Positions 1,955-34,811 of a DNA stretch of 64,000 nucleotides are shown piece after piece. The first letter of the stretch is position 1, and every line of letters starts with the position of its first letter. The stretch is from Naegleria gruberi (lineage: Eukaryota): NCBI GenBank assembly GCA_000004985.1, contig GG738881.1; one strand, written 5' to 3'. The notes under the pieces are model-generated. The model made no database searches and had not been told where the DNA came from. It was given only the letters and a program-made list of their open reading frames with translations. The position numbers were made by a program, and so were the translations under genes.

Positions 1955-2049
1955 ACACAGTAATAATAAGAAATTACAAGTCCTTGATGAATAGGTTTCC
2001 TAAAGTGAAAGCGTAGGTTATTGAATAATTTTATGATTCTAAATTCCTC

Positions 2050-2619
2050 TGGATCAAAGATTGTAATGAGAAGTGGATGGAAAGGAATTTATCTCTTGCT
2101 GTGGTTAAGGAAACCCGCTCAAAACGACCATTCTCTCCGTGCATGTGTATGGCCATTTTTCTGAAATAACAAAATTAAATACTTAATCGAAATGAAATTC
2201 ATATGTTTTTAAGGATTTACATGTAGGAAATGAAATCCTTACAATGCATATGATTTTTTACACTGATAAATGCAATAATACTGTTGGTCAATTGATAGTT
2301 GATAAGGAAGTTTGCGTCGCGGACTTGGGAAGCCAAATTATTACATCCGCACGAAAGTGTTCAAAAACCAATAAAAAGCTTGTTGACCTTATTGGATGAG
2401 ATGGTTGCTGAGGAAAACAAAGTGGCTGCACGATTTACCATGACTGGCACACATGACGGTGTGTTTATGGGAATTCCAGCAAGTGGAAAGAATATTTGTG
2501 TGAAAGCCTCAAATTTTTACACGTTTAAGGATGGTCAGATTGTTGAAGAGTATGGCCAACCTGATTTATTGTCGTTGTTGCAACAAATTGGTGCCATCCC
2601 ACCAGCCAAATTGATTTAG
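2050..2619 (+). CDS. SnoaL-like / ester-cyclase-family protein (bacterial-type). The terminal exon 2299..2619 is secure. An upstream exon around 2050..2148 is tentative, and a possible frameshift makes this a possible pseudogene.
   Basis: ORF 2299..2619 encodes ...DEMVAEENKVAARFTMTGTHDGVFMGIPASGKNICVKASNFYTFKDGQIVEEYGQPDLLSLLQQIGAIP, the conserved C-terminal half of the ester-cyclase fold. It is preceded by a ...CAATTGATAG acceptor. The upstream frame at 2050-2148 (CNEKWMERNLSLAVVKETRSKRPFSP) resembles the N-terminal half but has no clean ATG or junction. Confidence 0.45.
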
Positions 2620-4468: not shown

Positions 4469-6085
4469 TTACAAAATAAATTGATTCTGGTTCACAGAGA
4501 GAATCATCAATACTCCATCTCCTTGATCTGAAGCTTGTTGTTGAGATTTTGCAATATTAATTTCACTGTGATAATAATCATCTAGAAATGTAGTTGCTTT
4601 GAATCCAAACTTGGTGTAGAGTCTCTGAGCTGGTAAATTGAAAGAGGAAACATGTAATTGAATCCACAAACACTTCTTCCAATATTGAACAAATCCGCTT
4701 TGCATAGTTGGATAGTTATTCCAATATTTACATTCCTCTTCCTCAGTGTCAGCTATTTGGTCAACATTGACAATAACATGTTCATTAGAATTTAAAGATG
4801 AAACATAGTATGTTGTTTCAGAGGTATCTAAATTGCAGGCATTCGTCGTTGGTGTGATTGAATATTGAGAGCTTTGTACTTCATCATTCATTGATCTCCA
4901 CATCCAAGAATAGGTCAGAACATGTTGAATGGTAAATCTTAACAATTCCTGCCCAATTCCATTCTTTCTCAAATCTGGATGAACTGCAAATGAGGTAATT
5001 TCACATCGTTGCTTCTCCTTATTAATATTATAGGTAATGTAACCTGCAACAATGAGAGATCCAAAAATGTTGGTGTTATTCCTAGTACAAGCAACCCAGG
5101 TGAAATTATCAACTGGTTTTTCATGATTATTACATAGAGATTGTTTAAATGCCTGATAGAGATACTTCTTATCTAGTGGTTTTGAAAAGCAAGAGCATTC
5201 AATATCGTACAATGCCTCAAATGTTTGATCTGAGAATGGATAAATGAGAATATCTGCTGTCTTTTCTGTTGGACGAATATCAATCGAGTTGGAAGGAGAA
5301 TTATTTACATGATTTACATCCAATTGATTGGTTTGATCTGGTAAAATATCATTAAAATTGTCAACATAGATACTTTCAGCAATTCTTCTTGGTCTTTTCA
5401 TAATTGGAAGAGCTGATTGTAAGAATACATGATCAGACGGATGTGAAAATGATGAATTATTCGTAGTACTGGAATCAGTTCCACTCGTTACAGACATTGT
5501 ACTGACATTTAGCATCGATCCAGTTGTCTTTCTAATATGATTCTTCATACAAGTTGAGCACAAATCGAAATCTCTACAATTCAAACAGTGAAATCTCGTT
5601 CCATGAATGCTACACTCACATCCATCACAAGTAACACCCTTGTGAACTATCTTCCCCTGAACTATCTGAACTTGTTCCAAATTAAATGAATCAATTGGTT
5701 TGGTAAATAATTCATAATCTTTACAGTATTGATCAGCAACAAGCACTCCATTCTTTGATATTTTCTTATCCAATAATCCAATTCTTTCCAAAAGCGGATA
5801 TTTAAATTTTCTATTCAATACCAAAGCAAAACAATGTCCCTTTTTCTGATGATGTTTACCTTGTTCCTTTTTACAATTTAAACAGAGAGTATAGGCTGTT
5901 TGTTGAGAGGAAAGCGAACAATTTAAACAAATGGACATGATTTGATTTTCATTGATTTTTGATTTACAATTTTGACATGTACATTGATCGCTCCGATGAT
6001 GAATATCATTATTGAGAGGATGACCGGTCGAGGAAGAAAAAATGTGATTTCGAGAAGTAGCAGCAGGTTGGCGCAAATTGTTCAT
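4469..6085 (-). CDS. ZZ-type zinc-finger plus GNAT-family N-acetyltransferase protein (538 aa, single exon).
   Basis: Uninterrupted 538-aa ORF. The ZZ finger is CDGCECSIHGTRFHCLNCRDFDLCSTC. The C-terminal GNAT fold has the acetyl-CoA motif ...VHPDLRKNGIGQELL... and ...TKFGFK.... The N-terminus has further Cys clusters. Confidence 0.8.
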   Translation of the reverse strand: MNNLRQPAATSRNHIFSSSTGHPLNNDIHHRSDQCTCQNCKSKINENQIMSICLNCSLSSQQTAYTLCLNCKKEQGKHHQKKGHCFALVLNRKFKYPLLERIGLLDKKISKNGVLVADQYCKDYELFTKPIDSFNLEQVQIVQGKIVHKGVTCDGCECSIHGTRFHCLNCRDFDLCSTCMKNHIRKTTGSMLNVSTMSVTSGTDSSTTNNSSFSHPSDHVFLQSALPIMKRPRRIAESIYVDNFNDILPDQTNQLDVNHVNNSPSNSIDIRPTEKTADILIYPFSDQTFEALYDIECSCFSKPLDKKYLYQAFKQSLCNNHEKPVDNFTWVACTRNNTNIFGSLIVAGYITYNINKEKQRCEITSFAVHPDLRKNGIGQELLRFTIQHVLTYSWMWRSMNDEVQSSQYSITPTTNACNLDTSETTYYVSSLNSNEHVIVNVDQIADTEEEECKYWNNYPTMQSGFVQYWKKCLWIQLHVSSFNLPAQRLYTKFGFKATTFLDDYYHSEINIAKSQQQASDQGDGVLMILSVNQNQFIL

Positions 6086-6157
6086 TTTTTTCTTTGGTTG
6101 TTTACAATCTCTTCTATTTTTGAATCAGAGTTCATGTAAAATCATAAGAGGACAAAA

Positions 6158-6238
6158 CGTTGAGGATGGGATTCGAACCCACGCGGATTACTCCACCAAC
6201 TTAGCAGGCTGGCGCCTTAACCACTCGGCCACCTCAAC
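6158..6238 (-). tRNA. tRNA-Ser (anticodon GCT).
   Basis: Reverse complement reads GTTGAGGTGGCCGAGTGGTTAAGGCGCCAGCCTGCTAAGTTGGTGGAGTAATCCGCGTGGGTTCGAATCCCATCCTCAACG. It has the long variable arm typical of Ser and anticodon loop CTGCTAA. A T-run terminator follows (A-run at plus 6151-6157). It lies about 70 bp upstream of the ZZ-GNAT start codon. Confidence 0.9.
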
Positions 6239-6377
6239 TTACGATTTAATCTTTAAAATGGCAAACAGAACTGTAACACTTACAACCTTAGTAATCTCTG
6301 GAAATTCTATGCTTCAGAGGATAAAGATAGCAATTATTATGCAATATTATCCTCCAGAACTGGTAGACAGTTTATTC

Positions 6378-9300
6378 TTAAATATCTTCTCCTGCTGGAC
6401 TAATCATTATGGAAATCTTATCCAAATCATTGCCAATAGATATGGAAGACCTATTTGGACGCATCACAATTGGATTCACATGATGTTTCTCCTTTACAAG
6501 ATATGTTTTACATTCACCTTTTCCTTTTACCGAAACTTTTCTTTCTTCAAATTCGAATAAATCGTATGTTCTTTCGTAGGTACTTCGAGAAAGTTGGATT
6601 CGTCCTGGTACCCCAGTAGATTCCATTCTTGAGGAAGTATTGATGGTATCTCCCCATAAGTCTGTTTTTAATTATAAATATTCAATATTTTTGTAACAAA
6701 TTGTAATGCATAGTTAAAATATCGAAAAACATACCATAGGCAAATTTCTTTCTTCCAATCACACCAGCAATAACTCCTCCAGTATTCAATCCAATTCTAA
6801 CATTCAATTGTGAATCTAAATTTTCAGAATTATATGAACGGATTACTGACAAGGTGTCAATTGCAAATCTCAAAGTTCTTTCTGGATGATCGGATTGAGC
6901 ATTCACACCATGCAATCCTCCAACACAAAAATACGAATCCCCAATTGTTTTTATCTTTTCCAAATTGTATTTATCTGTCAAATCATCAAATCCGTTTACA
7001 ATTCTATTAAGCATTAGAACTAGCTCAGAAGGATTCATGTTAGAACTCAAATTTGTAAATCCAACCCTAAATAGATTATTTTCTAATAAATTCAAGGAAC
7101 TTACATATCACTGAAATAACAAGTAATGTCAGAAAATCTTTCGGCAATGAAAGTTTCTCCATTTTTAAGTTTCGTCGCAACTTCTTCTGGAAGAATGTTC
7201 CTTAATAAATTTTCAGAATTTTTCTTCTCCTCCGCAAGTAAACTATTCTGTTTCTTTTCCATTGTAATGTCCTTAATAAATAGAGAAACAAATGAGCTAT
7301 TGTTAATTTCAGTTCCAAAAATGCTCACTTTGGCGGGAAATTTACTCGAATTCTTTCGAATACAATCAATTTCCAATACTTCTCCCAATTCATTTTCTTC
7401 CCCTTTCGTATGGTATTTGAATTCGCCAGTTGCTTTCTTCATCAATTCGTGAAAAGACGGATCAAAGAGTGTTGTGAAGGATAAACCCAAAACGTCAACT
7501 GCTGATTTTCCAAACATTTTCTGAGCTGCAATATTGATAAATGTCACTTCTCCTCTTTCATTACATGTGACAGCTCCTTCTACCATTGAATTGAGAAGAT
7601 TCTTAATGGCATCGTCATATTCAGTCTTTCGTTTCACATGTGAACTATTAGAAAGTGTATTATTCACAATGAAATTCTTCAAAATATCATTCGAATCTAA
7701 ATAATCTATTGGAATGTAATTCAAAAACGTTCTCAATGTGGTAATATCATAATCAGTTGTGTGAAAGCTCATATAAATGTAATAATTAAAAGCAATCAAG
7801 AAGAAAAATCCAAACACAAAGAATACAATACTAATCACTTTCGATGATGAAGTAGAAGAAAGTGTTGTCAACAATTCCAATAATCTCTCAATCATTTCAT
7901 CTGTCATGTTAAATATACTGAGATAGTACAAAAAAGTGTCAGGTGCCTTTGCATAGAATGGATTCAAAATATCTTCATTGAATTTTGAACACAAATGAAG
8001 AACAGTTGCAACTAATTCTTGTAAATCATAACACGTTCCATTTAGACATGTAAGTGGAGCAGTAATTACCTCGTCAACTCCTGGATATTTGTTGAATATT
8101 GAGCTTGTCAAATTTCCACCGAATAAAAGTTCTGCAAATTGAGATTGTGCTTCAGAAATGTAGATGCGATTATCAGAGTGGTATGTATCTAGATTGGATT
8201 GATTGGCTAATGCAGGATCGTTAACAGAATGCCCTGACTTGATACCATAAAAGGCAAACAATTCACCCAATCGGACATTTAATCTTGTGCAAGCTCTTAT
8301 CACTGATGTGGCTGTGTCCACATTGACCATGGCCTGAGATGACATGGCCACATTCAGATTATTTTCCACATACATAAATGAAATACAAAGTGAAAATACT
8401 ATTAAGGAAAGAAAACCAATACTAAGGGACATGAATTTTGGACTAACTACCCTTCTCAAATGTTTCACTTCCTGAGTGGACCGTTTTTGAAGATCATGAT
8501 AGACGGATCCGACGAATTCTTTGGGAATCTTACTGAATAGGTTGATTATTCGAGAAGATTTAGACATTCCAATTCTGGAAATTATTAAAAATGTTCCATA
8601 AATGATAATTAATACAAATGTGGAAGTAAATAAGTAAATTCTCAAAATTCTATCAAGTAGCAAATTCTGAGCCCTCTTTCTAATCTGAAATTTTGAACAA
8701 AAAAGACCATTCGCCTCACTTGCAGCTCTTCTATTAAGGTAAGTATACATAAATTCATAAGATTTGATCGTTTCATTGTAATTCTTCCAATTGTAAATAA
8801 TTTTCGTGTTGGATATGAATTCTCTCGTCAACTCACTCATGGAAATGTTCTTCTTGTAGCTCGTCGTGTAAACTCTATCACTGGTGCTTACACTTGCTGT
8901 AGGAACAACAATCGGATTAATCACAGCTTTGTAATCTTCAACCATTTGTGTTGTAAACTGTGGTGATATTGAATTAGCAGCTAGATTTTGTAAATATTGC
9001 AAAATCCTTTTCAATCTACGTTGGTGATTATTCAGAAAATATTGAATAGTTTCATATTCAGAGGAATTCACAGCTGGTTGACTAATATTTAGATTATTGT
9101 AAAGCTCATTGTAAATTTGTCCCATTCTCACTTCACGCATCAAACTTGAAGGACTCGTTCCAGGTAAGCAAGAATCCAAAGATAATGGAATTTCCGTAAC
9201 TAAACTTCCCAAAACAATGCAAAGAATGAATGCAATTAAAAGTAAAACTATCTGAAACAAGGCTAAACCAATTAATGTGTAATTTCGTACTTTGGATTGA

Positions 9301-10970
9301 TAGGGAGTGTTAAGAGCGTTTCTAATAAAGAGATGTTTCTTTTCTGTGGATCCAGCCACTTCAATTCCTTCAAATTTTTCCTCCTCCAACTCAATCATGG
9401 TATTTCGTCTATTTTCTAATAAAGTATTTGGAGGTGTAATCATACTATTGGCAATACTAAAATGCTTTTCAGTTTTTGGTTTCGTCTTTTTCTCAAACTT
9501 TTTAACAATTGGCTGAGCTTTCGACTCTTCCTCTTCCAACTGAAAAGCTTGTTCGAATAAATCAGCAGCTGTTTCCTTGTCAAACTTGAAATTCTCTAAA
9601 TAACTTGCATAAAACCTCAACACTGTCTTATCGTGTTTAAAATTTGTCATTAAATGTTTAAATCTCTCATCACAATACAAGGTCAATGCAGTTGTACGAG
9701 AGATTAGTTGATTGATCTTAATTTCATTAGGTAGGTCAGAAATTATTTCCTTCCAAAACATGCGATGGATTGACCACAACTCATCCTGTTGTTTTTCCAG
9801 ATCGTGGAGCATGGTTTTGATTTCTACTTGATTAATTCCGTGAGTTTTAGTTGAGCTGTAAACTTCAATTTCTTTCATTCTTTCCATAATTAGAATTCTT
9901 GTCCAGCCATTGTTACAGAAGCGTTTTGCCTTTTTTAGAATGTAGGTAGCATAGGAAGAACTGTTTTCATCGTTCCAATANNNNNNNNNNNNNNNNNNNN
10001 NNNNNNNNNNNNNNNNNNNNNNNNNNNNNNNNNNNNNNNNNNNNNNNNNNNNNNNNNNNNNNNNNNNNNNNNNNNNNNNNNNNNNNNNNNNNNNNCCAAT
10101 TCGTTGTCTCCACACTCGTATCCTACTATGGACCTTTCCTTTCAAAGTTCTAAACTCGGTCACAAGTATGGCCATGAAGATAAAGTACATGGCCATGAGA
10201 ACACTAGTAATGGCAATTTTCGCCGTATATCCAATTGCATCCAATGAAAGTGTGATAGGATAATTGAGTACACGGAACACCCAACTAGCATACTGTCCAT
10301 ACGGATTTTCCTTAATATAATTGGTATTCGAAAGTGGATAATTACTTCTCTCTGAAGAAAGTGTTGGAAATATCAAATTAACCCAATACATGTACATGTA
10401 GAAACCAAAAATCAACACCCTCTCAAACATTCGAATCTCAGTTTCACTCGTTTTCACAGTCAAGTAAAAGTTTGCCAATTTTTCATTGAATAATTGAAAG
10501 ACTGAAGTTGGTGCACCACTCGAAGTTGTTAAAACATTATTGAAAGAGGACATGTTATCGGATGCTGTTGCTGGATTATTTCCTCCTCCAACTCCTGCTA
10601 TGGATAAATCGTACTGTGTATTTGTTGCTTGTGTTGGGCTGACAATTTGAATATTAGTTGAATTGTTATTGCTAATAGGAGTGGTTATTATGGTTGTGGT
10701 TGTGGAGTTTTTGTTGTTGTTGTTGTTATTCAGCTGATAAATTCCGCTACCACTCGAGGAATTAAGGAAATTAATATTGTTATTGTGATTAACATTGTTA
10801 TTGTTGTCGTTTGGTAATGTTGGAGAGGAAGTTAATGTAATTAGTGGAATGCTCATATCATCGCTTGCTTGTTGTTGAAGCATCGTCGTTGCTAAAGTAG
10901 AGACTTGTGGTGAAGATGAAGATGAAGAAGTGTTATCAACAATATTGCTCATCATCCTATGTTTTTTCAC
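6378..10970 (-). CDS. Multi-pass membrane class III nucleotidyl (adenylate/guanylate) cyclase with a PAS domain. Exons are 10970..7105 (interrupted by the assembly gap), 7066..6735 and 6661..6378.
   Basis: The 1289-aa ORF has many hydrophobic segments and a PAS-like block (VTCNERGEVTFINIAAQKMFGKSAVDVLGLSF...) followed by a coiled-coil region. It ends ...ERFSDITCYFSD|GTAAGT. After a 38-nt intron, exon 2 gives (M)VGFTNLSS...GDSYFCVGGLHG...RIGLNTGGVIAGVIGRKKFAY|GTATGT. After a 73-nt intron, exon 3 gives DLWGDTINTSSRMESTGVPGRIQLSRSTYE...KGKGECKTYLV, the canonical cyclase catalytic motifs. Confidence 0.8.
9981..10095. other. Assembly gap (115 N) inside the large cyclase ORF.
   Basis: Literal run of n characters. 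The ORF track shows X residues at this position. Confidence 0.99.
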
Positions 10971-16616: not shown

Positions 16617-19419
16617 CTACTTTTCTGTAGCAATATATACACCATTCCAAGAATCTGGAGGTGGTTCAAGCAAATAAGCTCTGCATCTCTCTGCCATTTC
16701 AAGAGCTGCTGAATCTTGATTATACTTGTCAGCATACTCTCTGAATGCCTTCTCTGCAACACCAAACTTTTTCTTCAGGTACAAGTCTTCCAGAATGTTA
16801 TTGTACAATCTGCAATAATCAACCTTATCTTGTGGAATCATAACCGAATCTCCTTGGAATGGTGACCATTTTCTAGCAACAATTTCATAAACTCTAACAC
16901 CAGTTACTTTACCCTTGACAGCGACCACATCTAACATTCTGAAAAGGAACAAGTCTTTGACAATTTCATAACAAAACTCTGACACCATAATGTTAGTTCC
17001 ATACACCTTATTCAAACCTTCCAATCTAGAAGCAAGATTTACAGAGTCTCCCAAACAAGTATAAGATAAACGATATGTTGAACCAATATTACCGACAAGG
17101 ACATCACCACAACTAACACCCACTCTAGTGTAGAGACCTGGCTTGCCTTCCTTTTCTAATTGTCTATTATAAGGCTGGAGGGATTTTTGCATTTCGAATG
17201 CAGCATTGCAACCGAAAAAGACATAAAAATCAAATGTATCTGGAGCACCAAACAAGGCCATCTAATATTATTTCATTGAAAATGGTTAAGCATTGCACAA
17301 GTTATTAAAACCTACCAAAGAGTCGCCAATATACTTATCCAAAACACCTCTATTTCTATATACAACTTCAGAGGTAACTTCAAAGTATTTACCCAAGATG
17401 GCAATCAATGTGTTGGGCTCTGTTGCTTCACAAATAGTCGTAAAACTCTTAATATCTGAAAATAGAATGGCAATATGTTTGGAATCAACACCCAAATCAA
17501 ACGATGCTGAATCACTGCCAATAAATTTGGAGACAATTTCTTTTGGTACGTATTTCATGAAACCATCGACAGCCAAAGACATTTTAGTAAAGTGGTTTCT
17601 CAATTTCTTAACTTCGTGGAAGAGAATTAGACGCTTCTTCTTTGCTTGAACTTGACCTTTACCAAGAGCGTCCATATCATTTCCGAGCGAAACAAGAGGG
17701 GCTGTAATTAACATACTCACAACGACAGCAATAACTAAGGAAACAAACAAAATGATACAGTCAGCAATCAAGACGATATTTCTAAACCAAATAACAGAAC
17801 CCATAAAATCGTCGACTGACATGATTGTTAAGACCTTCCAATTAAGGTCATGTTCATCGTCTACGGATTCCATATTCAACAAGTAACTGTTACCATTCAC
17901 TGTGTATTGATTGTCATGGCCTGTGAAATCTTGCAGATTACCCCCATACTTGGTCATAAGTAATTTACCAATTTCCTGCACATCCGGCAGTGAGCTTTCA
18001 TGAAGTTTCTTTCGCACCAGTTTATGAGGAACAATTTGATCATAAACATATAAAATTTCTTCGTTTGGTTTGGAGCAAGCAATCATTTCACTGGTTAGAG
18101 AAGAAACCACATACACCATTGAGTTGGGACTCATTTTGACACTTGCCAAATAGGCATTAATATCTTTGACAAGCAGATCTGTCGTTACCACATATTGAAC
18201 ATCTCCTGTAGCATTCAGAATTGGATGGTATGCTGTAATCCAAACACTTTCTACATTACTTGTTGCATACAAACTTGTCCATCCTTTCTTTTTTCTTTCT
18301 AAGGGGAAAGTCCACCATTCGAAACCGTACACAATTTCAGCATCCAATGATTGAGGTTCTTTTCTGCTCAAATTATACCTAAAATCACTAAAAATTGGTT
18401 CTTCAGCATAAAGAACACCATTCTGATAGTACTCTATTGTACATGCTGTCGTATTACTCAATATACCAAAATAGTAGTCATCTTTGTGAGTGAATGAGGC
18501 ATAACGAAGTCCAAAACCCATGACCATAGAGTAGAGAACTTGAATTCTTAGATTCCAATCAACCATTTTGGGGCTCAACTTGTCAAGTGCAGTAAAACTG
18601 TTCGTTACACTATCAGTAATTTGGAACGGTAGTTGAATAAAGTTATTCACGAATTCAACTGTTCTCAGCTTTGTTTGTGATCCCAGATTGGTAGTGAATT
18701 CATTAATAGATGCACCTATAGTTTTCAATTCATTATAAGAATCAGAAATTTAAGAAATTGATTGACTAAAAAGACATACCTTGTAAAACAATAGTAGCAA
18801 CGAATATGGAAATAGTCGAAATAAGGATCAATAGAATGATAATCACAGAAAGACAAAACTTAATGGAGAATATTCTAGATACCAGAGAATTCAAATAATT
18901 TTTCTCCTTCTCCACTTTTTTCCCCTTCTCCAGTGTGAGATCTTCATCTTCGGCTAGTACTTCTTTAAGCTTTTTCTCATCTTCTGCACTTGCAACGGGC
19001 ACTATCAATTTACTATTGCTTGCCTTTCTTGTGGCATTGCTCTTTTGCTTTTTAACTTCCTTCTTATTTGTTGTCTTTGTATTCTTTCTAAGTGATTCCT
19101 TGGTCGTTAAGGACTTTTTCATAGGTGATGATGGTGTGTTCGTCGACACAACAGCAGCCTTTGATAAATTATTGCTGCTACTACCGTTGGTACCAGTAAT
19201 ATTATTACTACTACTATTATTATTATATGCAACAACATTATTATTTGATAAATCAGTGATGGGTGTGAGTGTTGTTATTGGGGTTACGGGCGATGTGGTC
19301 GATTCATCATTATTATAATCATTAAGGATTTGTAATTCCGAACTGGTTGATGTTACCAGAGCTGCTGCTGAGGAGGAATTATTGGTTGATTTATTCTTTT
19401 GGGCTACTCGTGTGACCAT
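16617..19419 (-). CDS. Receptor-type class III nucleotidyl cyclase. Domains run: N-terminal low-complexity, TM, extracellular Cache-like sensor domain, TM, cyclase domain. Exons are 19419..18780, 18715..17316 and 17261..16617.
   Basis: Exon 1 ends ...FVATIVLQ|G GTATGT. After a 64-nt intron, exon 2 begins (G)ASINEFTT.... It contains WITAYHPILNATGDVQYVVTTDL (Cache-like), a second TM (VIWFRNIVLIADCIILFVSLVIAVVVSMLI) and the cyclase start KHIAILFSDIKSFTT...DKYIGDSL|GTAGGT. After a 54-nt intron, exon 3 gives MALFGAPD...GDSVNLASRLEGLNKVYGTNIMVSE.... Confidence 0.8.
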
Positions 19420-22585: not shown

Positions 22586-24514
22586 ATGAAACAATTGAAT
22601 GCTAGAGGATTATTTGAAAATTCTAAAGTGTCGGAAAGTAATCATCAGTGTGTTTTAGATTTATCCCTCTCTTCAAAATTACTTTCCACTAAAATTCAAG
22701 ACATTCCACAGAAAGATAAATATGAAATAATTATAAAACCACTATTCGAATATTGTTTCGGAACGAGTGATGATTCTGTTTGGGAGAAACTAAATGATGA
22801 TGAAGAGGAATACGAAAGTGATGATAATGACCACGATGAAGAGGAAGATGAAAGAATTGATGAAAATAATGACCAAAATGACACTAGTCAAATAATATAT
22901 TTAAAGATTGATTGGAACAGAGATCGAACTTTTATTCATGGGCAAATATTCAATTTGGTTGTTGGTAAATTTCTCATTTTGGCCAATAAGCTTGGATTGT
23001 GGAAGAATAGATCATTTGTTTTGACTACGACCGAATATAGAGATATTAAAACACTCAAGTATGTGGACGATAATTTCAGGAATGATAGGGAAATTGTAAT
23101 GGCAGCTGTCAACGAAAATGGACGTACCCTTAAATATGCATCGAGTGAATTGAGAAATGATTTTGAAATTGTAAAAACAGCCGCTCGGAATAATCGTCGA
23201 GCACTGTGGTATGCATCGAAACAATTGAGTAGTAATAAGGAAATTGTAATGACAGCTGTTAAAAGTAATGGACTATCTCTTGAATATATGCCTACACAAA
23301 TTAGAAATGACAGAAAAATTGTTAAAATTGCTATACAAGAGAATGGTAATGCACTTGGATATGCTTCAAAAGAATTGAAGAGTGATAAGGAAATTGCCCT
23401 ACTTGCTATAGAATCAAGCCCAAAAGCATATGAATGTGCATCTAATCAATTGACGAATGACCAAGATCTAATTCTTAAAGTGTTGTCCAAATCGTGCGAC
23501 TATATTTTCGGTATTGACCAATCAATTAAGCTATTTAAAAACGATAGAAAATTTATACTTGCTATTGCAAAGTTGGATGGCCTTAAAGCCCTTCGTAATG
23601 CTTCACTGGAATTGAGAGATAATAGAGAGATAGTAATTGAAGCAGTTCAACAAAATCCAAATGCTTTGGTCTATGCATCTAGTGAATTGAGGAATGACAA
23701 GGAGATTGTGAAAATGGCAGTAATGGAAAATGGAAGCTGTTTGACTTTTGCATCAAATGAATTGAAAGATGATAAGGAAATTGCGGAATTGGCATTCAAA
23801 TCTTCTGAAATTGCTGTTCGATATTTTTCTGAAAGATTGAGAAATGATATTGAATTCCTGAGCGGATTTGGAAAGAGAGGTTATTTATTAAAGATTTTAC
23901 CAGATCATTTCATGAATGACAGAGAAATAGTATTGGAAGCAATCAAACTGGACCCACAAATTATTTTGACTCTTCCCAATGAATTGAAAAGAGACAGAGA
24001 ATTTATATTGCAAGCTGTAACAAGATGTGGTATGGCACTTCGTGGAGTGAGTTCAGAATTTCAAAAAGATAGAGAATTAGTTTTGGCTGCAGTAACACAA
24101 AATGGAAATTCAATCAATTTTGCCTCACAAGAAGTTTGGAATGATAAGGAAATTGTTCTGAAAGCTGCCGAAACATGCAATCAAGAACTATTACTTAAAT
24201 TACCAAGTTTCGACAAACAAATTTACCTGCAACTCATCAAAAAACGTGGAGGTGAATGCCTGAAATATTTTCCAAGAAAATTTCAAATAGATAGAGAAAT
24301 TCTAATGGAAGCCTTAAAAACCCATCCTAAAACTGCATTCCTCAATGCTTCTGGCACGTTAAAGGTAATGGATCGAGTATTTGCTATGCGAGTTGTGAAA
24401 AGAGATGGCATGCTTTTAGGTGAAATGTGTTCAAAACACAAAAGTGATAGAGAAATAATTTCCTGTGCAGTCAAACAAAATATCAAAGCACTGAAATATG
24501 CATCCATTGATTGA
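22586..24514 (+). CDS. DUF4116-repeat protein (642 aa) with an acidic N-terminal region.
   Basis: More than 12 tandem units of about 36 aa, of the form ..N(D/E)REIV(L/M)(A/T)AV..NG.AL.YAS.ELR... The ATG at 22586 lies in an A-rich context. It is transcribed divergently from the Fic gene, 110 bp away. Confidence 0.8.
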   Translation: MKQLNARGLFENSKVSESNHQCVLDLSLSSKLLSTKIQDIPQKDKYEIIIKPLFEYCFGTSDDSVWEKLNDDEEEYESDDNDHDEEEDERIDENNDQNDTSQIIYLKIDWNRDRTFIHGQIFNLVVGKFLILANKLGLWKNRSFVLTTTEYRDIKTLKYVDDNFRNDREIVMAAVNENGRTLKYASSELRNDFEIVKTAARNNRRALWYASKQLSSNKEIVMTAVKSNGLSLEYMPTQIRNDRKIVKIAIQENGNALGYASKELKSDKEIALLAIESSPKAYECASNQLTNDQDLILKVLSKSCDYIFGIDQSIKLFKNDRKFILAIAKLDGLKALRNASLELRDNREIVIEAVQQNPNALVYASSELRNDKEIVKMAVMENGSCLTFASNELKDDKEIAELAFKSSEIAVRYFSERLRNDIEFLSGFGKRGYLLKILPDHFMNDREIVLEAIKLDPQIILTLPNELKRDREFILQAVTRCGMALRGVSSEFQKDRELVLAAVTQNGNSINFASQEVWNDKEIVLKAAETCNQELLLKLPSFDKQIYLQLIKKRGGECLKYFPRKFQIDREILMEALKTHPKTAFLNASGTLKVMDRVFAMRVVKRDGMLLGEMCSKHKSDREIISCAVKQNIKALKYASID

Positions 24515-26806: not shown

Positions 26807-28672
26807 TCACTTAAATTTATTCTTTTCAACGAAAAATTGTGGCATTAGTTCAATAGTGGCAAGACACTGATTGTAAAGATAGGCCATTTTTTCCTCTCCG
26901 AAAAAAGAATGAAAGTTTGTTTCTTCGGTGGAATATTTGTGACGAATGGTTTGGCAATATTGAGCGAATGGCATTCCATTGTATTGAATATGTTCAAGAG
27001 CATACTTGAAACCATCTAGCATGTGTGGATTCGTTAGGCCTGCATATCCAAGAGATCCAGTGGTATAGGGGTTGAAGAAATCTGCAATTTTTTCAATACA
27101 TTCCACACCTATGGATGGACTAAAGTTGTCAATCATGAGTTTAAATGATTCCCTAACATCATCAAAACCATAATAATCCACAAAGCAAGTAAGCATTTTG
27201 GAATTGATTTCTGATAAAAACTCCAAAGTTATTCCCTTGTAATTATTAAATAGAATATTCAAATCATACTTTGCAGGGTACATCTCAAAGAATGGTTTGA
27301 AAAATTGATTAGGTGAGCTTTTGCAATAGTTTCTAAAGTATGATAAAATAAAGTTAGTATTTCCCGTTTCTGGACTTATTTCATAAGGGTCAAAATTTTC
27401 AATTTTTGATAACAAGTGTGAAATCTTTGAACGGTAGTTGAATCTGTGAAAGATAATCTTTAAATCGATTGGAGTAATCATTCCACGCTCACTTAATAAA
27501 TCAATAATTTCTCTTTCATAACCATATAAAAAGAGACTATGTGATTTGACTCTGGAATAATCAATAGATTTTTCCTCAAAAACTTCCAAAAACTGACAAA
27601 GACTGTTGACAACTTCTTCTGGCGTTTCACATGAGTCAGGACTGAAGAATTCCATAAAATATTTGTCTTTTTGATATCTGAAATGCCACTCAAAACATGT
27701 TTGAAAGTTATCAAGCCATTGATTAGGATAAATAGCATTGAACATCTTTTTTAAATATCTCAATCTCACCATTCTTTTGGTACGTGTCAGCTGCATGAAA
27801 TCAATATATGGATCTTCACTTTTTTCATAATTTCCCTCCACAGAAATATAGTTCAGTAAAAAATCCAAAAAGCTTTCATTTCCATTTTCATCTTCATTCA
27901 CATTCCAATAGGAAATTAAAATCTTTTCCAAAATCTTGTCATTTAGAATTGGTTTGAAATTTTGAACAAAGCAAATTACTTGAGGAGAACAATCATCGTC
28001 TGTTTTCCCAATCTCACCACTCATCACATCAGCAATTGAAAAAGTAAATCGTTTCCAATACTCTTGAGCATAAAGAGAATTATTCACTCGTCCATTCAAT
28101 GTGAACTTTTTAGCTTGGTTAAGGAAATACTGAGCCATATATCCAGAATGTTCATAATTGACCACTCCCTTCGTGAAATCGTGACGAATCTCATCCACTC
28201 CCTTTGCCATCTTCATATTATAGTGCATAATCATGGCAGAGGAGGCCAACTTTTTAAATCTCATCCCAAATACTGTCGATTTCTCTCCCTTCTCTCCATA
28301 CCTATCTTCATCCATATACTTTTCAAAACTTGCCCTACTCACCGATTTTTCCTTCACAATCTGCGATTCATAAAACTTGTTCAATTGACTAATTATTGAC
28401 TTGTACAAATTCCCGCCTTTTTTTTTTCTTTCATGACCCATCACCATCATCAAATCATTTTCATCACCATCATCGGAATGATTTAATTTTCCATAATAAT
28501 CAATCTTTGTTTGTATAAAATTGGACAGCAGTGTTTTCCACACAATTTCAAACCGATCCAATTCGTACCAATTTTTGCAGGTGCAGAGGAGTGAGAGACC
28601 ATCTGCAATGGAGAGAAATTCGAGGATGGCAAAGAGTGTGTCAATGTGAATCTCTGTATTGTTGCTGGACAT
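26807..28672 (-). CDS. F-box-like protein (621 aa); the C-terminal region has no recognisable domain.
   Basis: The N-terminus IDTLFAILEFLSIADGLSLLCTCKNWYELDRFEIVWKTLL is F-box-like. It is a long uninterrupted ORF. Its 3' end is only about 70 bp from the 3' end of the convergent Trx-TPR-J gene. Confidence 0.65.
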   Translation of the reverse strand: MSSNNTEIHIDTLFAILEFLSIADGLSLLCTCKNWYELDRFEIVWKTLLSNFIQTKIDYYGKLNHSDDGDENDLMMVMGHERKKKGGNLYKSIISQLNKFYESQIVKEKSVSRASFEKYMDEDRYGEKGEKSTVFGMRFKKLASSAMIMHYNMKMAKGVDEIRHDFTKGVVNYEHSGYMAQYFLNQAKKFTLNGRVNNSLYAQEYWKRFTFSIADVMSGEIGKTDDDCSPQVICFVQNFKPILNDKILEKILISYWNVNEDENGNESFLDFLLNYISVEGNYEKSEDPYIDFMQLTRTKRMVRLRYLKKMFNAIYPNQWLDNFQTCFEWHFRYQKDKYFMEFFSPDSCETPEEVVNSLCQFLEVFEEKSIDYSRVKSHSLFLYGYEREIIDLLSERGMITPIDLKIIFHRFNYRSKISHLLSKIENFDPYEISPETGNTNFILSYFRNYCKSSPNQFFKPFFEMYPAKYDLNILFNNYKGITLEFLSEINSKMLTCFVDYYGFDDVRESFKLMIDNFSPSIGVECIEKIADFFNPYTTGSLGYAGLTNPHMLDGFKYALEHIQYNGMPFAQYCQTIRHKYSTEETNFHSFFGEEKMAYLYNQCLATIELMPQFFVEKNKFK

Positions 28673-28785
28673 TTTTTTTTTTAATTGTTTTTTAAACTTT
28701 GAAAACTATTTGTAAATAAATTTATGAATTTTACAAAATAATTTCACATAAAAATTACATCAATAATGGGTACACAGATCCTTTT

Positions 28786-28975
28786 ACAGTTCTGATTTTA
28801 ATCAAGTAGATATTCGTGAGGGTATCAATACTGGAGCTGCAATTGCTGGAGTGATTGGGTAAAAAACAATTAAAAAAAAAATGTCCAGCAACAATGCAGA
28901 GAAGTTGTTTCTAGAAATTTAAACATTAACAAATAATAGCACCAAGAAATTTGCATATGATTTGTGGGGTGTAAG
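28786..28975 (+). pseudogene. Relic of a class III cyclase catalytic-domain gene: two exon-like pieces with intact splice-site flanks but no continuation.
   Basis: ...FNQVDIREGINTGAAIAGVIG|GTAAAA... (79-nt intron) ...[24 protein letters not shown]. It is similar at both protein and nucleotide level to the [25 protein letters not shown] segment of the cyclase at 6378..10970, but the intron positions differ. The downstream DTVNTASRMES-type motif is absent. Confidence 0.45.
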
Positions 28976-29239
28976 TATTTCAATACTGTATTGTTGATAT
29001 GTAAACATGCAAGGAATTGTAAGCTCTCAACTATGTTGTATAAATATTCCTCGGTCTGTTGAGATTTCGTTTCAAATTCAAATGTCATCAACTTTACACA
29101 ACAACTTTTCAATCAGTTTCTTCTTCACTGATGAAAAATTTGGACCACTGGAAAGATTTTTTACTGACACCATGATCAAAAAAATGTCGTGAAGCGAACC
29201 GAATTCGACAGATTTCTAATAATGGTAAAGTAACTATTT

Positions 29240-29417
29240 CCAATTGCTGGAACTGGTGAGTCTGGAGAGAGTGGAGAAGGTGGACCTGTTGTCAATGCTC
29301 AAATTTATTCTCCATACTCTCTTGATGTTAACTCTAAAGGTGAACTAATCTTTATCGATGAAAATTACAAAGTTAAAAAGATTTTCAAGAAAGGTACATT
29401 ACCGTATCGAATTCGTT
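29240..29417 (+). pseudogene. NHL-repeat-like coding fragment, probably part of a disrupted NHL/EGF gene.
   Basis: One frame translates to IAGTGESGESGEGGPVVNAQIYSPYSLDVNSKGELIFIDENYKVKKIF, an NHL-type beta-propeller blade pattern. It is bounded by a stop/donor-like GTACAT and has no start. Confidence 0.35.
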
Positions 29418-29447
29418 AAATGGCAAATCGATTTCAAATAAATCTAC

Positions 29448-30473
29448 TTATTTTTTATTGAATTTAGCATACATCTCTTGTAGTTTAGTTTTGGCAAGTT
29501 CCTTTTCTTTTTCGATTTCTTCTTTCATTTCTTGTTGAACACCTGCAATAATGGTATCATACATATCAATATTCTTGTTCATTAATTTCAAATCTTCGTT
29601 TTCTTCTGCTGCTGATTTGTCGGAAACTATCTTGTTGTATCTTTCTTGCCAATCTTTTAAGAACTGTTCTTTCTCTTCCAATAATTTGCGTTCAGCATCT
29701 AAAAACTTGAAATACTTGCTTTGAATCGCTTTCATTTGAACAACAACTTTGTGTGACTTTTCTAATTTCAAGTTGGATTCGAATTTGTCAAGTTCAATTG
29801 CTTTAAAGAATTGAATTTCCAAAGTACCAAATTTCTTCATATCCTTTTCATTGATATTTTTCAATTTGGTTGCAAAAATAGGCGAAACAGCTTCTGTTTT
29901 TCTTTTTTTGTAAGCTTGACTGATTTCTGCTTTGTTCTTCTCATACTCCTTTAAAAGGTTATCAACAAATTCATCTTCATCATCACTTGAACAATAATCA
30001 TCTTTAAAAGAAGCCTTCATAGTAGTATCCAACACTTTCTGTGCATTATCTTTTGTTTCTTTAGCACCATTTAATTCCTTTTCAATGTCGTCAATTATAC
30101 TCTGAAGGTTCTTTTTTACAAAACCATCGAATAGCTTATTGATATAGGAGTGATTTGGATAGCTTTTCGAAGATTTAGGAATGAAACCTTGTTTTCTAAG
30201 CTTACCACCAGTAGATGGAAACATAAATTGATCATTTTTGGATTCTTTTACCATTTTTTCATACCATAACTTTGACACCAAAACAATTTCCGAATCTTCG
30301 AGCATACTTTCTCCATAGGGCTTATGGCTGAGATTTGCGAGTAAGACTTCAACAAATCTATCAAATGTGTCAAAGTTGGCAGAGAGTTTGGTTGGAATTT
30401 TGAGTGATTTTTTTTGTGGAAATTCCAAAATAAAGAAAGGTGATGTTCTTTTTGTAAAATCACCCAAAAACAT
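29448..30473 (-). CDS. Coiled-coil protein of unknown function (about 341 aa), located between the two NHL-repeat fragments.
   Basis: Uninterrupted ORF with an ATG at about 30473 preceded by an A-run. The C-terminal half is strongly heptad/charged (KEK.., EEK..). No domain is recognised. Confidence 0.6.
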   Translation of the reverse strand: MFLGDFTKRTSPFFILEFPQKKSLKIPTKLSANFDTFDRFVEVLLANLSHKPYGESMLEDSEIVLVSKLWYEKMVKESKNDQFMFPSTGGKLRKQGFIPKSSKSYPNHSYINKLFDGFVKKNLQSIIDDIEKELNGAKETKDNAQKVLDTTMKASFKDDYCSSDDEDEFVDNLLKEYEKNKAEISQAYKKRKTEAVSPIFATKLKNINEKDMKKFGTLEIQFFKAIELDKFESNLKLEKSHKVVVQMKAIQSKYFKFLDAERKLLEEKEQFLKDWQERYNKIVSDKSAAEENEDLKLMNKNIDMYDTIIAGVQQEMKEEIEKEKELAKTKLQEMYAKFNKK

Positions 30474-30532
30474 TGGCACAACGAAAATACAATTTGATTT
30501 TTATTTTAAATCGAAATTAGATATCGAATGTG

Positions 30533-31490
30533 AGGTGAATCCATTTACATTATTGGTGATGGACCTGCACTTGCTGTTACTTTGAATAATCCATTTCAGA
30601 TGGTTTTCAATTCAGATGGTGATTTATACTTTTCAGAAGAATTGAATAGAATTAAAAAGCTCAGTAATGGACAAGTAACAACTTTGGTTGGAAATGAAGC
30701 CAATGGTTATTCTGGAGATGGTACTTTAGCACAAAATGCACAGGTTAATTTACCATCTGGTTTAGCTATCAAACCAGGAACTAATTTCGAATGGAACTAT
30801 TATAACAATTACACTGTTGGGGTTGATATGGGAAGCTTTGATGGAGATTTGGCCATAAATGCAGGACTGAACTTTCCATTTGGATTAATTGTCACTCCCG
30901 CAGATGAAATTGTTTTTGTTGATGTAGTCAATCATAGAATTTGTATTGTTTTCTCAAATGGAACTATCAATACTATTGCAGGTAATGGGAAGAGTGGATT
31001 TAGTGCAGATGGTCAATTGGCAACTCTTCGTTGGATTTGAGAGGAGGAATTGCAATGAATTCACTTGGTGAAATAGTTTTCTCTGACAGTAATAGAATTC
31101 GTAAATGGGTAACGAATGGAACACTGACAACAATTGCTGGTAGGCAAAGCTCTGGATATAGTGGTGATGGTCAGTTGGCCCTTAATGCCCTTCTCAAAGC
31201 TCCACTATTATAAGTTGATTCGAGTGATAATATTTACATTACTGATACAGAAATTCGACAGATTTCAATGATTTGTTCATCTCCATATGTAATGAGAGGA
31301 AATGAATGCATTCCAACTTGTTTTGGTTTCAATTCAAGTAGTTTACATGTTTGTTCTGGACGTGGACAATGCAACGAAACAGATACATACACCTTATTAT
31401 GGAAGCAATTGTGAATTGGTTGTTTGTAATGAAATTGCCAAGAATTCATCTCTTGTTTGTTCTTGAAGTGGAATTTGTCAATCTCATGTA
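30533..31490 (+). pseudogene. NHL-repeat region (about 30533..31213) followed by tenascin/teneurin-type EGF-like Cys pattern fragments (about 31214..31490). The reading frame is broken in several places.
   Basis: The frames give IIGDGPALAVTLNNPFQMVFNSDGDLYFSE...LVGNEANGYSGDGTLAQNAQVNLPSGLAI...TIAGNGKSGFSADGQLATLRWI*. After a frame switch comes LRGGIAMNSLGEIVFSDSNRIRKWVTNGTLTTIAGRQSSGYSGDGQLALNALLKAP*. Then come CSGRGQCNETDTYT and, in another frame, PYYGSNCELVVCNEIAKNSSLVC. No clean GT-AG introns were found to repair the shifts. Confidence 0.4.
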
Positions 31491-31614
31491 AACCTGGATA
31501 TTATGGAACCGTACAAAAAAAATGAATTAACAAGGAAACACTTTATTTCACAAGATATTAAATATTAATAACACTAATATTATGATTGGATATGTGAGAT
31601 CTTTTTGAGTTTTC

Positions 31615-32001
31615 TTAACACCATCTAACACCTCCAACACAACCATATCCACCATAACCACCATAACCACCATATCCACCATAGAATGGAACACCATATC
31701 CACCATAACCACCATAGAATGGCATTGAATAAGCACTTCCATAATTGTTTCCATAACTAGTTGGTCCAGTATAATAAGATCCATAACTTGAATATGGATT
31801 TGAGTTGACTGCATTCACTTGATTCCAATAGGATTGAGTATTTTGTCCATATTGATTGTAATTTCCTCCAGTGACTCCATAGTTAGAACCAGAACCTCCT
31901 GATGTACCATAATTAGTACCATAATTGTTGCTATATTGGCAGTTGACCAAGCAAGAAGCGATGAGTACAGTGGCTACAAGAGCAATGATTAGTTTGTTCA
32001 T
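31615..32001 (-). CDS. Small secreted Gly/Tyr/Asn-rich protein (128 aa) with an N-terminal signal peptide.
   Basis: MNKLIIALVATVLIASCLVNC is a hydrophobic signal. It is followed by YG(S/G)NYG and GGYGGYG repeats and a C-terminal CVGGVRWC. A TATTTAAA (TATA-like) element lies about 65 bp upstream on the same strand. Confidence 0.65.
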   Translation of the reverse strand: MNKLIIALVATVLIASCLVNCQYSNNYGTNYGTSGGSGSNYGVTGGNYNQYGQNTQSYWNQVNAVNSNPYSSYGSYYTGPTSYGNNYGSAYSMPFYGGYGGYGVPFYGGYGGYGGYGGYGCVGGVRWC

Positions 32002-32282: not shown

Positions 32283-34811
32283 TCATTTCAAATAGCAAGC
32301 ATCAAGATAGGTTGTACAAATTCGTTTCTGAAACAATTCTTCACTGAATTCACAGCAAAATCCACTTTTCATGGCAATTTCTTCTTTCATTTCAACTAGT
32401 GGCGAAAGTAATTGTTTTAGAAGGGCACATATTCCACATTCGTTTCGTTTCAGTGCTTCCAGAACCATTTCCAGATCCATAGTGATGCTAGCTTGATGAG
32501 TGATAAAGAATGAACATGAGAGTCCATTTCGTATAGCTTCTAAAATACAGAGATTGTCCTGGATTAGGTCATTTGAGGCGAAATAAATCGAATCTGCCTT
32601 ATTTCTAATGGCTGCAAGAACGACATCCCTATCATTTCGCATTTCAACTGATAGAAACTTTAACAAGTCACCTCTCAAACTAACAACTATCAAGGCAATT
32701 TCTTTACAATTTCTCACCCTTTCGGATGCTAATTCAATGACAGTTGGATCGGTCATGACAGCCAATTTCATTATTTCCAAATCATCTTTCAATATGGAGC
32801 ATGTATGCTTCAAAGGAATGATAGATTGCTTAACAGCTTCCAAAATAAATTCCCTGTCATTCTTGAATTTGCGTTTCAAATCGTCTGGAATGGAGAAGAA
32901 ATTGGTTTTCAAACCCGCCAATATAATTTCCTTGTCTGATCTTAAATTTTCATTAAGGAAATGGAATGACAACACTTCTGGATCGTTTTTGACTGATTCT
33001 AATACAATTTGTCTGTCTTGTTGTAATTTTGGAGAGGCAAATTCAAGGGAGCATCCACGATTTCTGACAGCTGTCAAGACTATTTCTCTATCTTGAACCA
33101 AATCTTCACACACAAATTCCAGTGCATCTCCCTCACTTTCCACAGCTTTCAAAACAACCTCTCTATCATTCCAAAAATCAGGGAAATATTCCAAATAATA
33201 TCCATTATACGAAACTGTTTCCAATGCAAAATCTCTATCCTCAATCAACATGGTTTCAATTTCACTGAAAATCTCAATCGGACATTCCTTAATTGCTTCC
33301 AACATGAACGATCGACTATTCCTCAAAAATAATGAAGCATCTTCCAGACATTGAGGATACAACCTTAATATTTTTAACATGAAAATTCTGTCATTCTTTT
33401 GTTTCATTGTAATGAGATGAAAGAATTGATAATTCGATTCGACTATCTGATATACGAAATCATTGTCTGTTTCCCAGGATTTGTTCCAAATTCTGGAAAT
33501 GAGTTGTTTGGAATTGAATGGTGAACTGTCAATTAGACAACTGATAATTTTGAAAATTTGTAAAACTAAATCTTGGTGTTGTTTCACATTGGTTTCGTCT
33601 AATAAATTATTGATGCATGAAAATAAAGTTGCTGAAAGCCCAGAGTTTGCTAATTTCGCTCCTTCTGCATGGGAAACAACCTTCAAAGTATGTGAAATTA
33701 TTTCTGTGAGGATTGACTTGTCATTTTTCAAATCTTTCGAAAGCCATTCCAAAATTTCGAATAACTTATTAAGCAATGATATTGCCGATTGTTCATTTGT
33801 AATTCTATTACATTCCAATCCGTTTTGTCTAATAGATTCAATAACAATCTCAATATCATTCACACATTCGTCCAATCTAAGAACAATCGAATAAGCTCCT
33901 CGTTTCACACATGTCAATGCCATCTTTCTCCATGAATAATTTTCATTACAATTATTGGCTATCTGCTTCATAGCTAACAAGATAATTTCTCTATCCTTAC
34001 TAAATTGAGAATCAATTACATATTCCATTACTCTTCCATTTTCTCTCACTGCATCCATTACAAAATTTCTATCACGACATAATTTCTCCTTTACCAATTT
34101 AAAAACTGTTGCATTATTCGAAAGGGCTTGAAGGGCAACTTGTCGATCGTATTGATAGTGATTTGAGAGAAGAGGTAAAATCAGTCCATTGTTTCGAACA
34201 CATTCGAATATAAACTCTCTATTCTTCATCAATTCCTTATTTACAAAACTAATAGCCTTTTCATTATTCTTGATAGATTCCAAAACAACATTTCGATCAT
34301 CATTGAAATTCTTCAACTCCTTCAATGCTAATCCATCCTTTCGTACAATTTGCAAGACGAAACTCTTCTTATGAATTTGATAAAGATTTCTCAAGGTTGC
34401 AACTGTTTGCCACGAATCAGGTTTACAAATTCTGAAAACTTTCTCCACAATTTCAAAATCATTTTCCAATAATTGTGGATGAATATTCTCCCACAATCGA
34501 TCTGCATCATTATTCGAATGTTTGTTCCGATCATGGAAATCATCAAGGAATTGCATGATATATTGTTTGTCCTTCGAGTATTCGATCGGAATGAAGTTTA
34601 GAATAGTAAATCGATTGATCAACCATTTGTATTTTCCCTTGCTTTGATTTTCGAATCGTTTCTTCAAATTCGAATACAAATAATGATCATTGTGATGATG
34701 CTGACTGAGAAAATCATAAAGGATGAGAACTACCAAATCATGATTGCATTGGTGCATTGTATTTGAACTTGGGAGTGATGCAAATACACTTTCTAATATT
34801 TTATTCGACAT
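32283..34811 (-). CDS. DUF4116-repeat protein (842 aa), paralogue of the gene at 22586..24514.
   Basis: Tandem repeats such as ..DREVVLKAVESEGDALEFVCEDLVQDREIVLTAVRNRGCSLEFASPKLQQDRQIVLESVKN.... Single exon. Confidence 0.8.
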   Translation of the reverse strand: MSNKILESVFASLPSSNTMHQCNHDLVVLILYDFLSQHHHNDHYLYSNLKKRFENQSKGKYKWLINRFTILNFIPIEYSKDKQYIMQFLDDFHDRNKHSNNDADRLWENIHPQLLENDFEIVEKVFRICKPDSWQTVATLRNLYQIHKKSFVLQIVRKDGLALKELKNFNDDRNVVLESIKNNEKAISFVNKELMKNREFIFECVRNNGLILPLLSNHYQYDRQVALQALSNNATVFKLVKEKLCRDRNFVMDAVRENGRVMEYVIDSQFSKDREIILLAMKQIANNCNENYSWRKMALTCVKRGAYSIVLRLDECVNDIEIVIESIRQNGLECNRITNEQSAISLLNKLFEILEWLSKDLKNDKSILTEIISHTLKVVSHAEGAKLANSGLSATLFSCINNLLDETNVKQHQDLVLQIFKIISCLIDSSPFNSKQLISRIWNKSWETDNDFVYQIVESNYQFFHLITMKQKNDRIFMLKILRLYPQCLEDASLFLRNSRSFMLEAIKECPIEIFSEIETMLIEDRDFALETVSYNGYYLEYFPDFWNDREVVLKAVESEGDALEFVCEDLVQDREIVLTAVRNRGCSLEFASPKLQQDRQIVLESVKNDPEVLSFHFLNENLRSDKEIILAGLKTNFFSIPDDLKRKFKNDREFILEAVKQSIIPLKHTCSILKDDLEIMKLAVMTDPTVIELASERVRNCKEIALIVVSLRGDLLKFLSVEMRNDRDVVLAAIRNKADSIYFASNDLIQDNLCILEAIRNGLSCSFFITHQASITMDLEMVLEALKRNECGICALLKQLLSPLVEMKEEIAMKSGFCCEFSEELFQKRICTTYLDACYLK

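Follow-up and report, generated by a model that had tools for sequence, protein, structure and literature searches.

How an intact gene comes to lie, on the opposite strand, between two parts of a broken one is the question raised by the region from 28.7 to 31.5 kb of a Naegleria gruberi sequence from contig GG738881.1 (assembly GCA_000004985.1), analysed here as a window of 64,000 nucleotides (nt). Using a combination of profile and translated homology searches, read-outs of the frame junctions and alignment of individual propeller blades, our analysis leads us to regard the region as a case of ordinary decay in the genome of a protist rich in gene families, marked by a single tidy footprint of insertion. 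Between two neighbouring genes it probably holds three things: a relic of a cyclase catalytic domain, a pseudogene for a protein with an NHL-repeat propeller followed by an EGF array, and an inserted live gene for a helical protein. The argument below begins with the broken host, turns to the intact gene within it and the footprint at its edges, and then takes up the cyclase relic upstream.

The plus strand carries about two blades of an NHL propeller at 29150-29412, about five more at 30530-31270 and some two and a half EGF repeats at 31271-31525. Both propeller parts were traced by tblastn and junction read-outs, the downstream one also by blade alignment. For the searches, the plus-strand frames from ~29234 to 31525 were stitched into a single translation, which matches the Pfam profile TEN_NHL (PF25021; E=1.7e-13, 50.7 bits against a cut-off of 27.1) and retrieves 74 NHL proteins. 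The sole eukaryotic match among these is N. lovaniensis C9374_011613 (P0005), a protein of 637 amino acids (aa) with 34% identity over 99% of the query. Seven blade motifs of the relic align with blades of this protein, and the tblastn matches to it are collinear across frames 2, 0, 2 and 0 (position modulo 3; sum E=2.5e-36). The collinearity extends to the junction between the last blade and the EGF array, which reads ...ITDTEIRQISMICSSPYVMRGNECIPTCFG in the relic and ...SDYGNLRIRKISITCQSGYGGANCDIFTCSS in C9374_011613. The EGF part aligns, cysteines included, with the N. lovaniensis EGF array (tblastn E=3e-5 to 6e-4 per repeat) and scores below threshold against Pfam EGF_2 (E=0.015, 16.1 bits; cut-off 22.1). 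The NHL blades proposed in the initial annotation of this DNA are present and the EGF cysteine spacing probably so, and the propeller reaches further left than had been recognized, through FFTDT...ANRIRQISNNGKVT at ~29150-29232. Among the annotated N. gruberi protein models, none extends over the NHL pieces, and comparison of the window with itself yields no second NHL or EGF copy.

This host sequence carries a series of lesions. From left to right on the plus strand, the junction read-outs reveal a frameshift where additional sequence separates FFTDT from ANRIRQIS (~29190), a frameshift inside NNGKVT/IAGTG that is too tight for an intron (~29232), a TGA at a conserved glycine position (30531), loss of the core of blade 4, where the reading slips locally into a different frame (ISNGTIITI, ~30790-30815), a 1-nt deletion (GQLAT/SSLDLRGG, ~31024), a TAA inside a strand (APLL*VDSSDN, 31214), a frameshift with loss of a C-x-C segment (~31386), a TGA in CS*SGIC (31464) and a last frameshift (~31490). 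To these, the sequence and the blade alignment add the putative 1.1-kb insertion at 29413-30529, considered below. In all, there are at least six frameshifts without room for introns and three in-frame stops, and both ends of the gene are gone: the upstream end has neither a start codon nor a signal peptide, and the EGF array breaks off close to where the neighbouring gene at 31615-32001 on the minus strand has its 3′ end. An uninterrupted open reading frame (ORF) for a closed propeller is not found in the relic. Judged by its reading frames, we take the NHL-EGF relic to be a non-functional pseudogene.

The initial annotation had noted at least three frame switches without plausible introns, a count that now doubles, and had left two readings side by side, one an NHL-EGF gene pseudogenised after insertion or duplication events and the other a gene with many tiny introns that hosts a nested antisense gene. 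A functional multi-exon gene with many very short introns, or one read through by recoding, would find some encouragement in the frequency of GT and AG dinucleotides and in the number of stops, which is low for non-coding AT-rich DNA (3 in 400 codons). Such a gene is nevertheless scarcely credible here, since homology crosses the frame switches with zero residues lost, as at 31024, stops fall within conserved blade strands such as APLL*VDSSDN, the core of blade 4 is deleted, the start and signal peptide are missing and the EGF array is shortened. The standard code, moreover, fits all the neighbouring long ORFs. The pseudogene reading is supported, as its lesions cannot be spliced away and the ORF segment between the two NHL parts bears an insertion footprint. 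Against some 30 internal stops expected at compositional equilibrium, the stitched frames hold only those 3 in 400 codons (the off frames, 64 in 794), and because of this scarcity the pseudogene looks fairly young. A young, previously unannotated NHL-EGF pseudogene, together with the cyclase exon relic described below, is what the locus adds to the annotation of N. gruberi.

Between the two NHL parts, the minus strand carries an ORF of 341 codons plus a stop (29448-30473). Its lack of interruption had been reported before and is confirmed here; at the local composition, a stop-free run of this length has a probability of 2.6e-12. Compared with the "predicted protein" of N. gruberi (EFC42193.1, XP_002674937.1), the ORF shows 100% identity, which marks the window as nuclear DNA of this species. 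The annotated model of this gene, NAEGRDRAFT_69882 (P0001), has 268 aa, corresponding to residues 74-341 of the ORF, and begins at an internal methionine. The 73 codons upstream of the annotated start (30254-30473) form an open frame that includes (F/W).T(F/I)DRFVE, a motif that both of the distant homologues we recovered conserve. Because this first conserved motif sits upstream of the annotated start, the model is probably short by 73 residues at its N-terminus and the true protein 341 aa long; NAEGRDRAFT_69882 should then begin 73 codons further upstream.

The product is rich in charged residues, Lys, Glu, Asp and Arg making up 36% of it, and belongs to no Pfam family. AlphaFold2, given a 3-sequence alignment, models it as all-helical with a 99-residue terminal helix, but with low confidence, at a mean predicted local distance difference test score (pLDDT) of 46 and a predicted template modelling score (pTM) of 0.20, too poor for a fold search; a coiled-coil nature would be plausible for such a protein. 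When 1.84 billion representatives were scanned exhaustively with HMMER, nothing emerged besides the N. gruberi protein itself and two distant homologues of environmental metagenomic origin: P0076 (423 aa, E=3e-4, whole-library) and P0077 (365 aa, E=5e-4, HMMER). Both are collinear with the ORF and have in common with it the motifs W.TFDRFVE, F.FPT..G..KKQG, IFD.FI and KKRK.E.VSP. Word-indexed searches recovered the N. gruberi protein and P0077 only, and two Joint Genome Institute (JGI) metagenome scans gave no further relatives. Exact-sequence look-up of the ORF and of the annotated model in the contig collection returned no record, and self-comparison of the window found no second copy of the ORF. 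From its intactness and its conserved motifs we conclude that the ORF is a real, lineage-restricted cellular gene, which would presumably be expressed. A literature look-up for the locus tag NAEGRDRAFT_69882 or for Naegleria NHL/EGF proteins found nothing; the sole sample accession that it retrieved, SRR636569, is an environmental metagenome.

How this gene came to interrupt a propeller blade can be approached from the edges of the segment that holds it. Two copies of an 8-bp direct repeat, TATCGAAT, at 29405-29412 and 30522-30529, form a putative target-site duplication around 1,109 bp (29413-30521), which consist of the minus-strand ORF with 35 nt of 3′ flank and 48 nt of 5′ flank. We aligned the blades implied by an insertion model and by an intron model with nine blades from the relic and C9374_011613. 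Under the insertion model, removing 29413-30529 (the segment plus one repeat copy) yields ...KKIFKKGTLPYRM*GESIYIIGDGPA, a blade that aligns without a gap with the nine others and in which 14 residues separate the NG motif from GDG, as they do in every one of those. The TGA within it sits on a conserved glycine, and GGA to TGA is a single substitution.

Under the intron model, the helical-protein gene would always have been nested antisense in an intron of a functional NHL-EGF host and would have survived when the host later decayed. A splice from GT at 29394 to AG at 30534 does join the upstream and downstream frames exactly (K-G-E-S), giving ...KKIFKKGESIYIIGDGPA, but the resulting blade, although in frame, has an 8-residue gap that leaves it shorter than every other blade. 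NHL-like spacing, moreover, runs on beyond the putative donor as far as the 8-bp repeat, and the segment ends carry that repeat in a perfect, 8/8 match. An intron of 1.14 kb would also be long for Naegleria, which counts against nesting. Because excision at the 8-bp repeat restores the exact blade while the intron leaves it 8 residues short, insertion is favoured over a gene nested in an intron. Taken together, the repeat and the restoration of both frame and length tip the balance somewhat towards insertion with target-site duplication, and we consider long-standing nesting unlikely.

We suggest that a gene-sized piece of DNA, 1.1 kb in length, would have entered blade 2 of the NHL-EGF gene, or of what was by then already a pseudogene, in antisense orientation and with duplication of an 8-bp target, either through staggered-cut integration or through repair capture. 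On this account, the insert carries an intact, lineage-restricted gene that most likely arrived by insertion and probably did not originate within an ancestral intron. The empty site would then read as a continuous blade, ...CCGTATCGAATGTGAGG..., and the locus would offer a clean, checkable gene-into-gene insertion with target duplication, in a protist about whose mobile elements little has been described. Self-comparison of the window gives no donor copy of the insert.

The surroundings of one distant homologue bear on both histories. On a 2.3-kb metagenome contig (L002), the P0076 gene (600-1871, plus strand) is followed, beginning 70 nt past its stop, by an opposite-strand ORF (1941-2255, minus strand) in which an NHL blade is plainly recognizable, passing the Pfam NHL cut-off at E=3e-6, the NHL homology ending ~200 nt from the P0076 stop. 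This convergent topology is that of the N. gruberi ORF and the upstream NHL part, and its recurrence around a homologue of 27% identity speaks for an old nested arrangement. Against such an arrangement, the far side of the L002 homologue is occupied by a non-NHL ORF (1-384, minus strand), and the NHL homology stops at a blade position unlike that at the N. gruberi locus. The second homologue's contigs extend too little on either side of it to inform on its neighbours, and at the N. lovaniensis locus that encodes C9374_011613 (L001) two NHL genes stand side by side. The adjacency in L002 may be fortuitous, should NHL genes be numerous in these amoebae; alternatively, it may stem from a neighbourhood of long standing or from a preference for such targets. 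A bolder proposal is that, in distant heterolobosean lineages, the gene for the helical protein and genes with NHL repeats keep company more than at random, as an ancient antisense pair or because the 1.1-kb unit is a mobile cassette that integrates with an 8-bp duplication and prefers NHL genes; it strikes us as doubtful. Were it true, the N. gruberi locus would be a cassette caught killing, or outliving, its host gene; repeated NHL adjacency would need more genomes before counting as surprising.

L002 also contains a motif, (A/C)ATGCATATT(C/T)A(T/C)GC, that occurs four to five times upstream (376-510) and twice downstream (1901-2035) of the homologue. A 31-nt tandem pair and a perfect 14-nt hairpin belong to this set, which has no counterpart at the N. 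gruberi locus.

Within the N. gruberi insert, repeat searches and controls identify a 15-nt inverted repeat with 1 mismatch (29428-29442 and 30500-30514). Its arms lie 15 nt inside the left end and 7 nt inside the right end, not abutting the duplication, and they stand 6 nt beyond the ORF stop and 27 nt ahead of its ATG. An inverted repeat of this kind is seen in 0.16% of control flank pairs, and a palindromic motif, AAATCGATTT, underlies it. We did not accept it as a terminal inverted repeat, given its sub-terminal position and palindromic base; it could be a regulatory motif or the remnant of an element.

The inverted repeat near both ends, rare as it is among controls, is one of several features that would suit a segment that is, or derives from, a hAT-like transposon with an 8-bp target-site duplication or a retrocopy, perhaps one drawn to NHL-repeat genes as targets. 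The 8-bp target-like duplication and the gene-sized insert with a mere 48 and 35 nt of flank would suit it too, as would the L002 homologue, which adjoins NHL sequence as well as an ORF whose N-terminus resembles a helix-turn-helix by eye, and which has repeated ATGCATATT motifs in both flanks. Yet the inverted repeats are sub-terminal and stand apart from the direct repeats, and the 35 nt 3′ of the ORF stop contain no A-run on the gene strand, in which the segment differs from a processed retrocopy. Neither a transposase nor a reverse-transcriptase domain, nor any Pfam match, is found in the segment; the family has one protein in N. gruberi and three in the whole library; and the L002 neighbour with the helix-turn-helix-like start gives no significant Pfam match (best E=0.075, below the cut-off) and no PDB sequence match. 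We accordingly regard a mobile element as improbable here.

Several observations also weigh against the insertion that we favour. Direct repeats of at least 8 bp occur in 7.9% of comparable flank pairs of the window, so that the repeat by itself carries little weight. Terminal inverted repeats, a poly(A) tail or a transposase, which would point to a specific insertion mechanism, are missing from the insert, and there is no second copy of it among the annotated N. gruberi proteins. A frame-keeping GT...AG pair (29394/30534) does exist, and a random recent insertion does not predict that a distant homologue of the ORF should abut opposite-strand NHL sequence in L002. The labels of dead host and live insert, finally, are drawn from sequence alone.

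Upstream of the pseudogene, decay has left a second footprint. A cyclase catalytic-domain relic on the plus strand consists of one piece at 28770-28859 (VHRSFYSSDFNQVDIREGINTGAAIAGVIG) and another at 28941-28976, the latter closed by a perfect GTAAGT donor (28971-28976); between them lie 81 nt with in-frame stops (28860-28940). The coding parts, 28770-28859 and 28941-28970, share one frame of 40 codons and match Pfam Guanylate_cyc (PF00211; E=3.1e-8; 33.9 bits, cut-off 21.9), with the match confined to profile positions 91-127, or 37 of the 183; the relic has no complete class III catalytic domain in an open frame. By tblastn, it matches the C-terminal exon of the intact cyclase gene that the window carries at 6378-10970 on the minus strand (E=1.1e-7). 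The initial annotation had described two exon-like cyclase pieces, beginning at 28786, with GT/AG flanks and no continuation. The domain and the GT donor stand, as does the lack of a continuation, with translation and tblastn finding no cyclase-like sequence downstream of the donor. The homology, however, begins ~16 nt further upstream, and the AG at 28788-9 is not an exon edge because it lies inside homologous sequence. The relic looks like the tail of a single exon that ends at an old splice donor.

The ancestry of this exon is to be sought among the many class III cyclase genes of the organism, whose cyclase family is very large; the window itself contains a second cyclase-like gene at 16617-18728. 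A segmental duplication from the gene at 6378-10970, proposed earlier on the grounds of nucleotide similarity, is unsupported. The sole blastn match is 27/32 nt (E=0.004), nucleotide identity over the conserved core is 72% (84 of 117 aligned positions), and the intron positions differ. The relic and the intact gene share the core (V/I)R(I)G(I/L)NTG...AGVIG.., whereas the intact gene runs uninterrupted where the relic has its 81 nt with stops, and has an intron of its own 10 nt beyond that point. The supposed intron between the relic pieces is thus missing from the intact cyclase, and it opens with a copy of the 5′ end of a neighbouring gene.

This copy is an inverted one. The first 44 nt of the 81-nt insert repeat, in reverse orientation, the segment at 28651-28694, where the F-box-like gene to the left has its first 22 coding nt and 22 nt of its 5′ leader (28651-28694 / 28860-28902: 44 nt, 95% identity, E=7e-13 by blastn), with 165 nt between the arms. 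A further ~38 nt complete the insert. The inverted copy includes the start codon of the F-box-like gene, opens a 13-codon ORF (MSSNNAEKLFLEI*) and lands exactly between the two cyclase pieces. That the 81 nt are an ancestral intron was ruled out, as the intact paralogue is uninterrupted there and the insert begins with the copy of the neighbour. We infer a templated insertion, which may have arisen when templated repair, through a fold-back or a template switch, copied the start of the adjacent gene; the 44-nt inverted copy would be a neat footprint of such repair.

The locus is set in DNA of 33% G+C (over the whole window), in which ORFs are long and intron-poor, and it is bounded by two apparently live genes, both on the minus strand. 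The left neighbour, at 26807-28672, is the F-box-like gene, whose 621-aa product has a weak F-box-like match. The right neighbour, at 31615-32001, encodes a Gly/Tyr-rich, predicted secreted protein of 128 aa with a hydrophobic leader; its extreme content of Gly, Tyr, Asn and Ser stems partly from 9-nt and 33-nt tandem repeats, and it has a weak, sub-threshold likeness to mussel foot protein 3 (Pfam). Two large DUF4116-repeat proteins are encoded a few kb to either side of the locus, at 22586-24514 (plus strand) and 32283-34811 (minus strand), the 842-aa one with 15 repeats (E=5e-109). A DUF4116 neighbour is also found beside the N. lovaniensis NHL-EGF genes, with similarity at the repeat-family level only. 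Synteny with N. lovaniensis was considered and rejected: tblastx of 20-42 kb of the window against locus L001 gives repeat-family-level similarity, not orthology.

No Rfam family is found in 27-33 kb at E<=0.1. The window has three tRNAs, none close to the 28.7-31.5 kb region; one of them, tRNA-Ser(GCT) at 6158-6238 (minus strand), lies ~140 nt downstream of the stop of the intact cyclase gene and overlaps a spurious plus-strand ORF (6078-6560). At 63267-63958 (plus strand), at least seven tandem 72-nt units encode 24-aa leucine-rich-repeat-like units (...NNNIGDEGAKEISKL...), inside an ORF that reaches the window end.

Set beside known systems, the locus resembles host and nested antisense gene pairs in that one gene, itself intact, separates two parts of a second gene and runs antisense to it, and in that an in-frame GT...AG pair is available, but the host here appears dead and the blade length argues for insertion, not for an old intron. 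With insertions of hAT-type DNA transposons it shares the 8-bp duplication, the length of which varies in retrocopies, and with these and retrocopies the property that excision restores the frame and length of the target; it differs from them in having no terminal inverted repeats, transposase or poly(A), and in an insert that is apparently single-copy. The closest relatives of the broken host are N. lovaniensis C9374_011613 and its 1,004-aa neighbour at locus L001, which present about six NHL blades followed by a teneurin-type EGF array, in the same order as the relic. C9374_011613 is intact, with an N-terminal hydrophobic leader, where the copy in the window is shortened and frame-broken, and it represents a family member and not a demonstrated orthologue, the loci not being syntenic. 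The architecture of the ancestral gene had initially been called teneurin-like, and as far as domain types go this holds: the relic blades match TEN_NHL (PF25021), and the intact Naegleria relative matches teneurin-type EGF profiles (PF23106, PF25024). The Pfam output for the relic and its relative includes no YD-shell, transthyretin-like (TTR) or toxin-like teneurin modules. The order of domains does not follow teneurins, which have a transmembrane segment, then EGF repeats, then NHL, then the YD shell. In contrast, NHL precedes EGF in both the relic and its intact relative, the opposite order, and the resemblance of the Naegleria proteins to teneurins is one of domains only.

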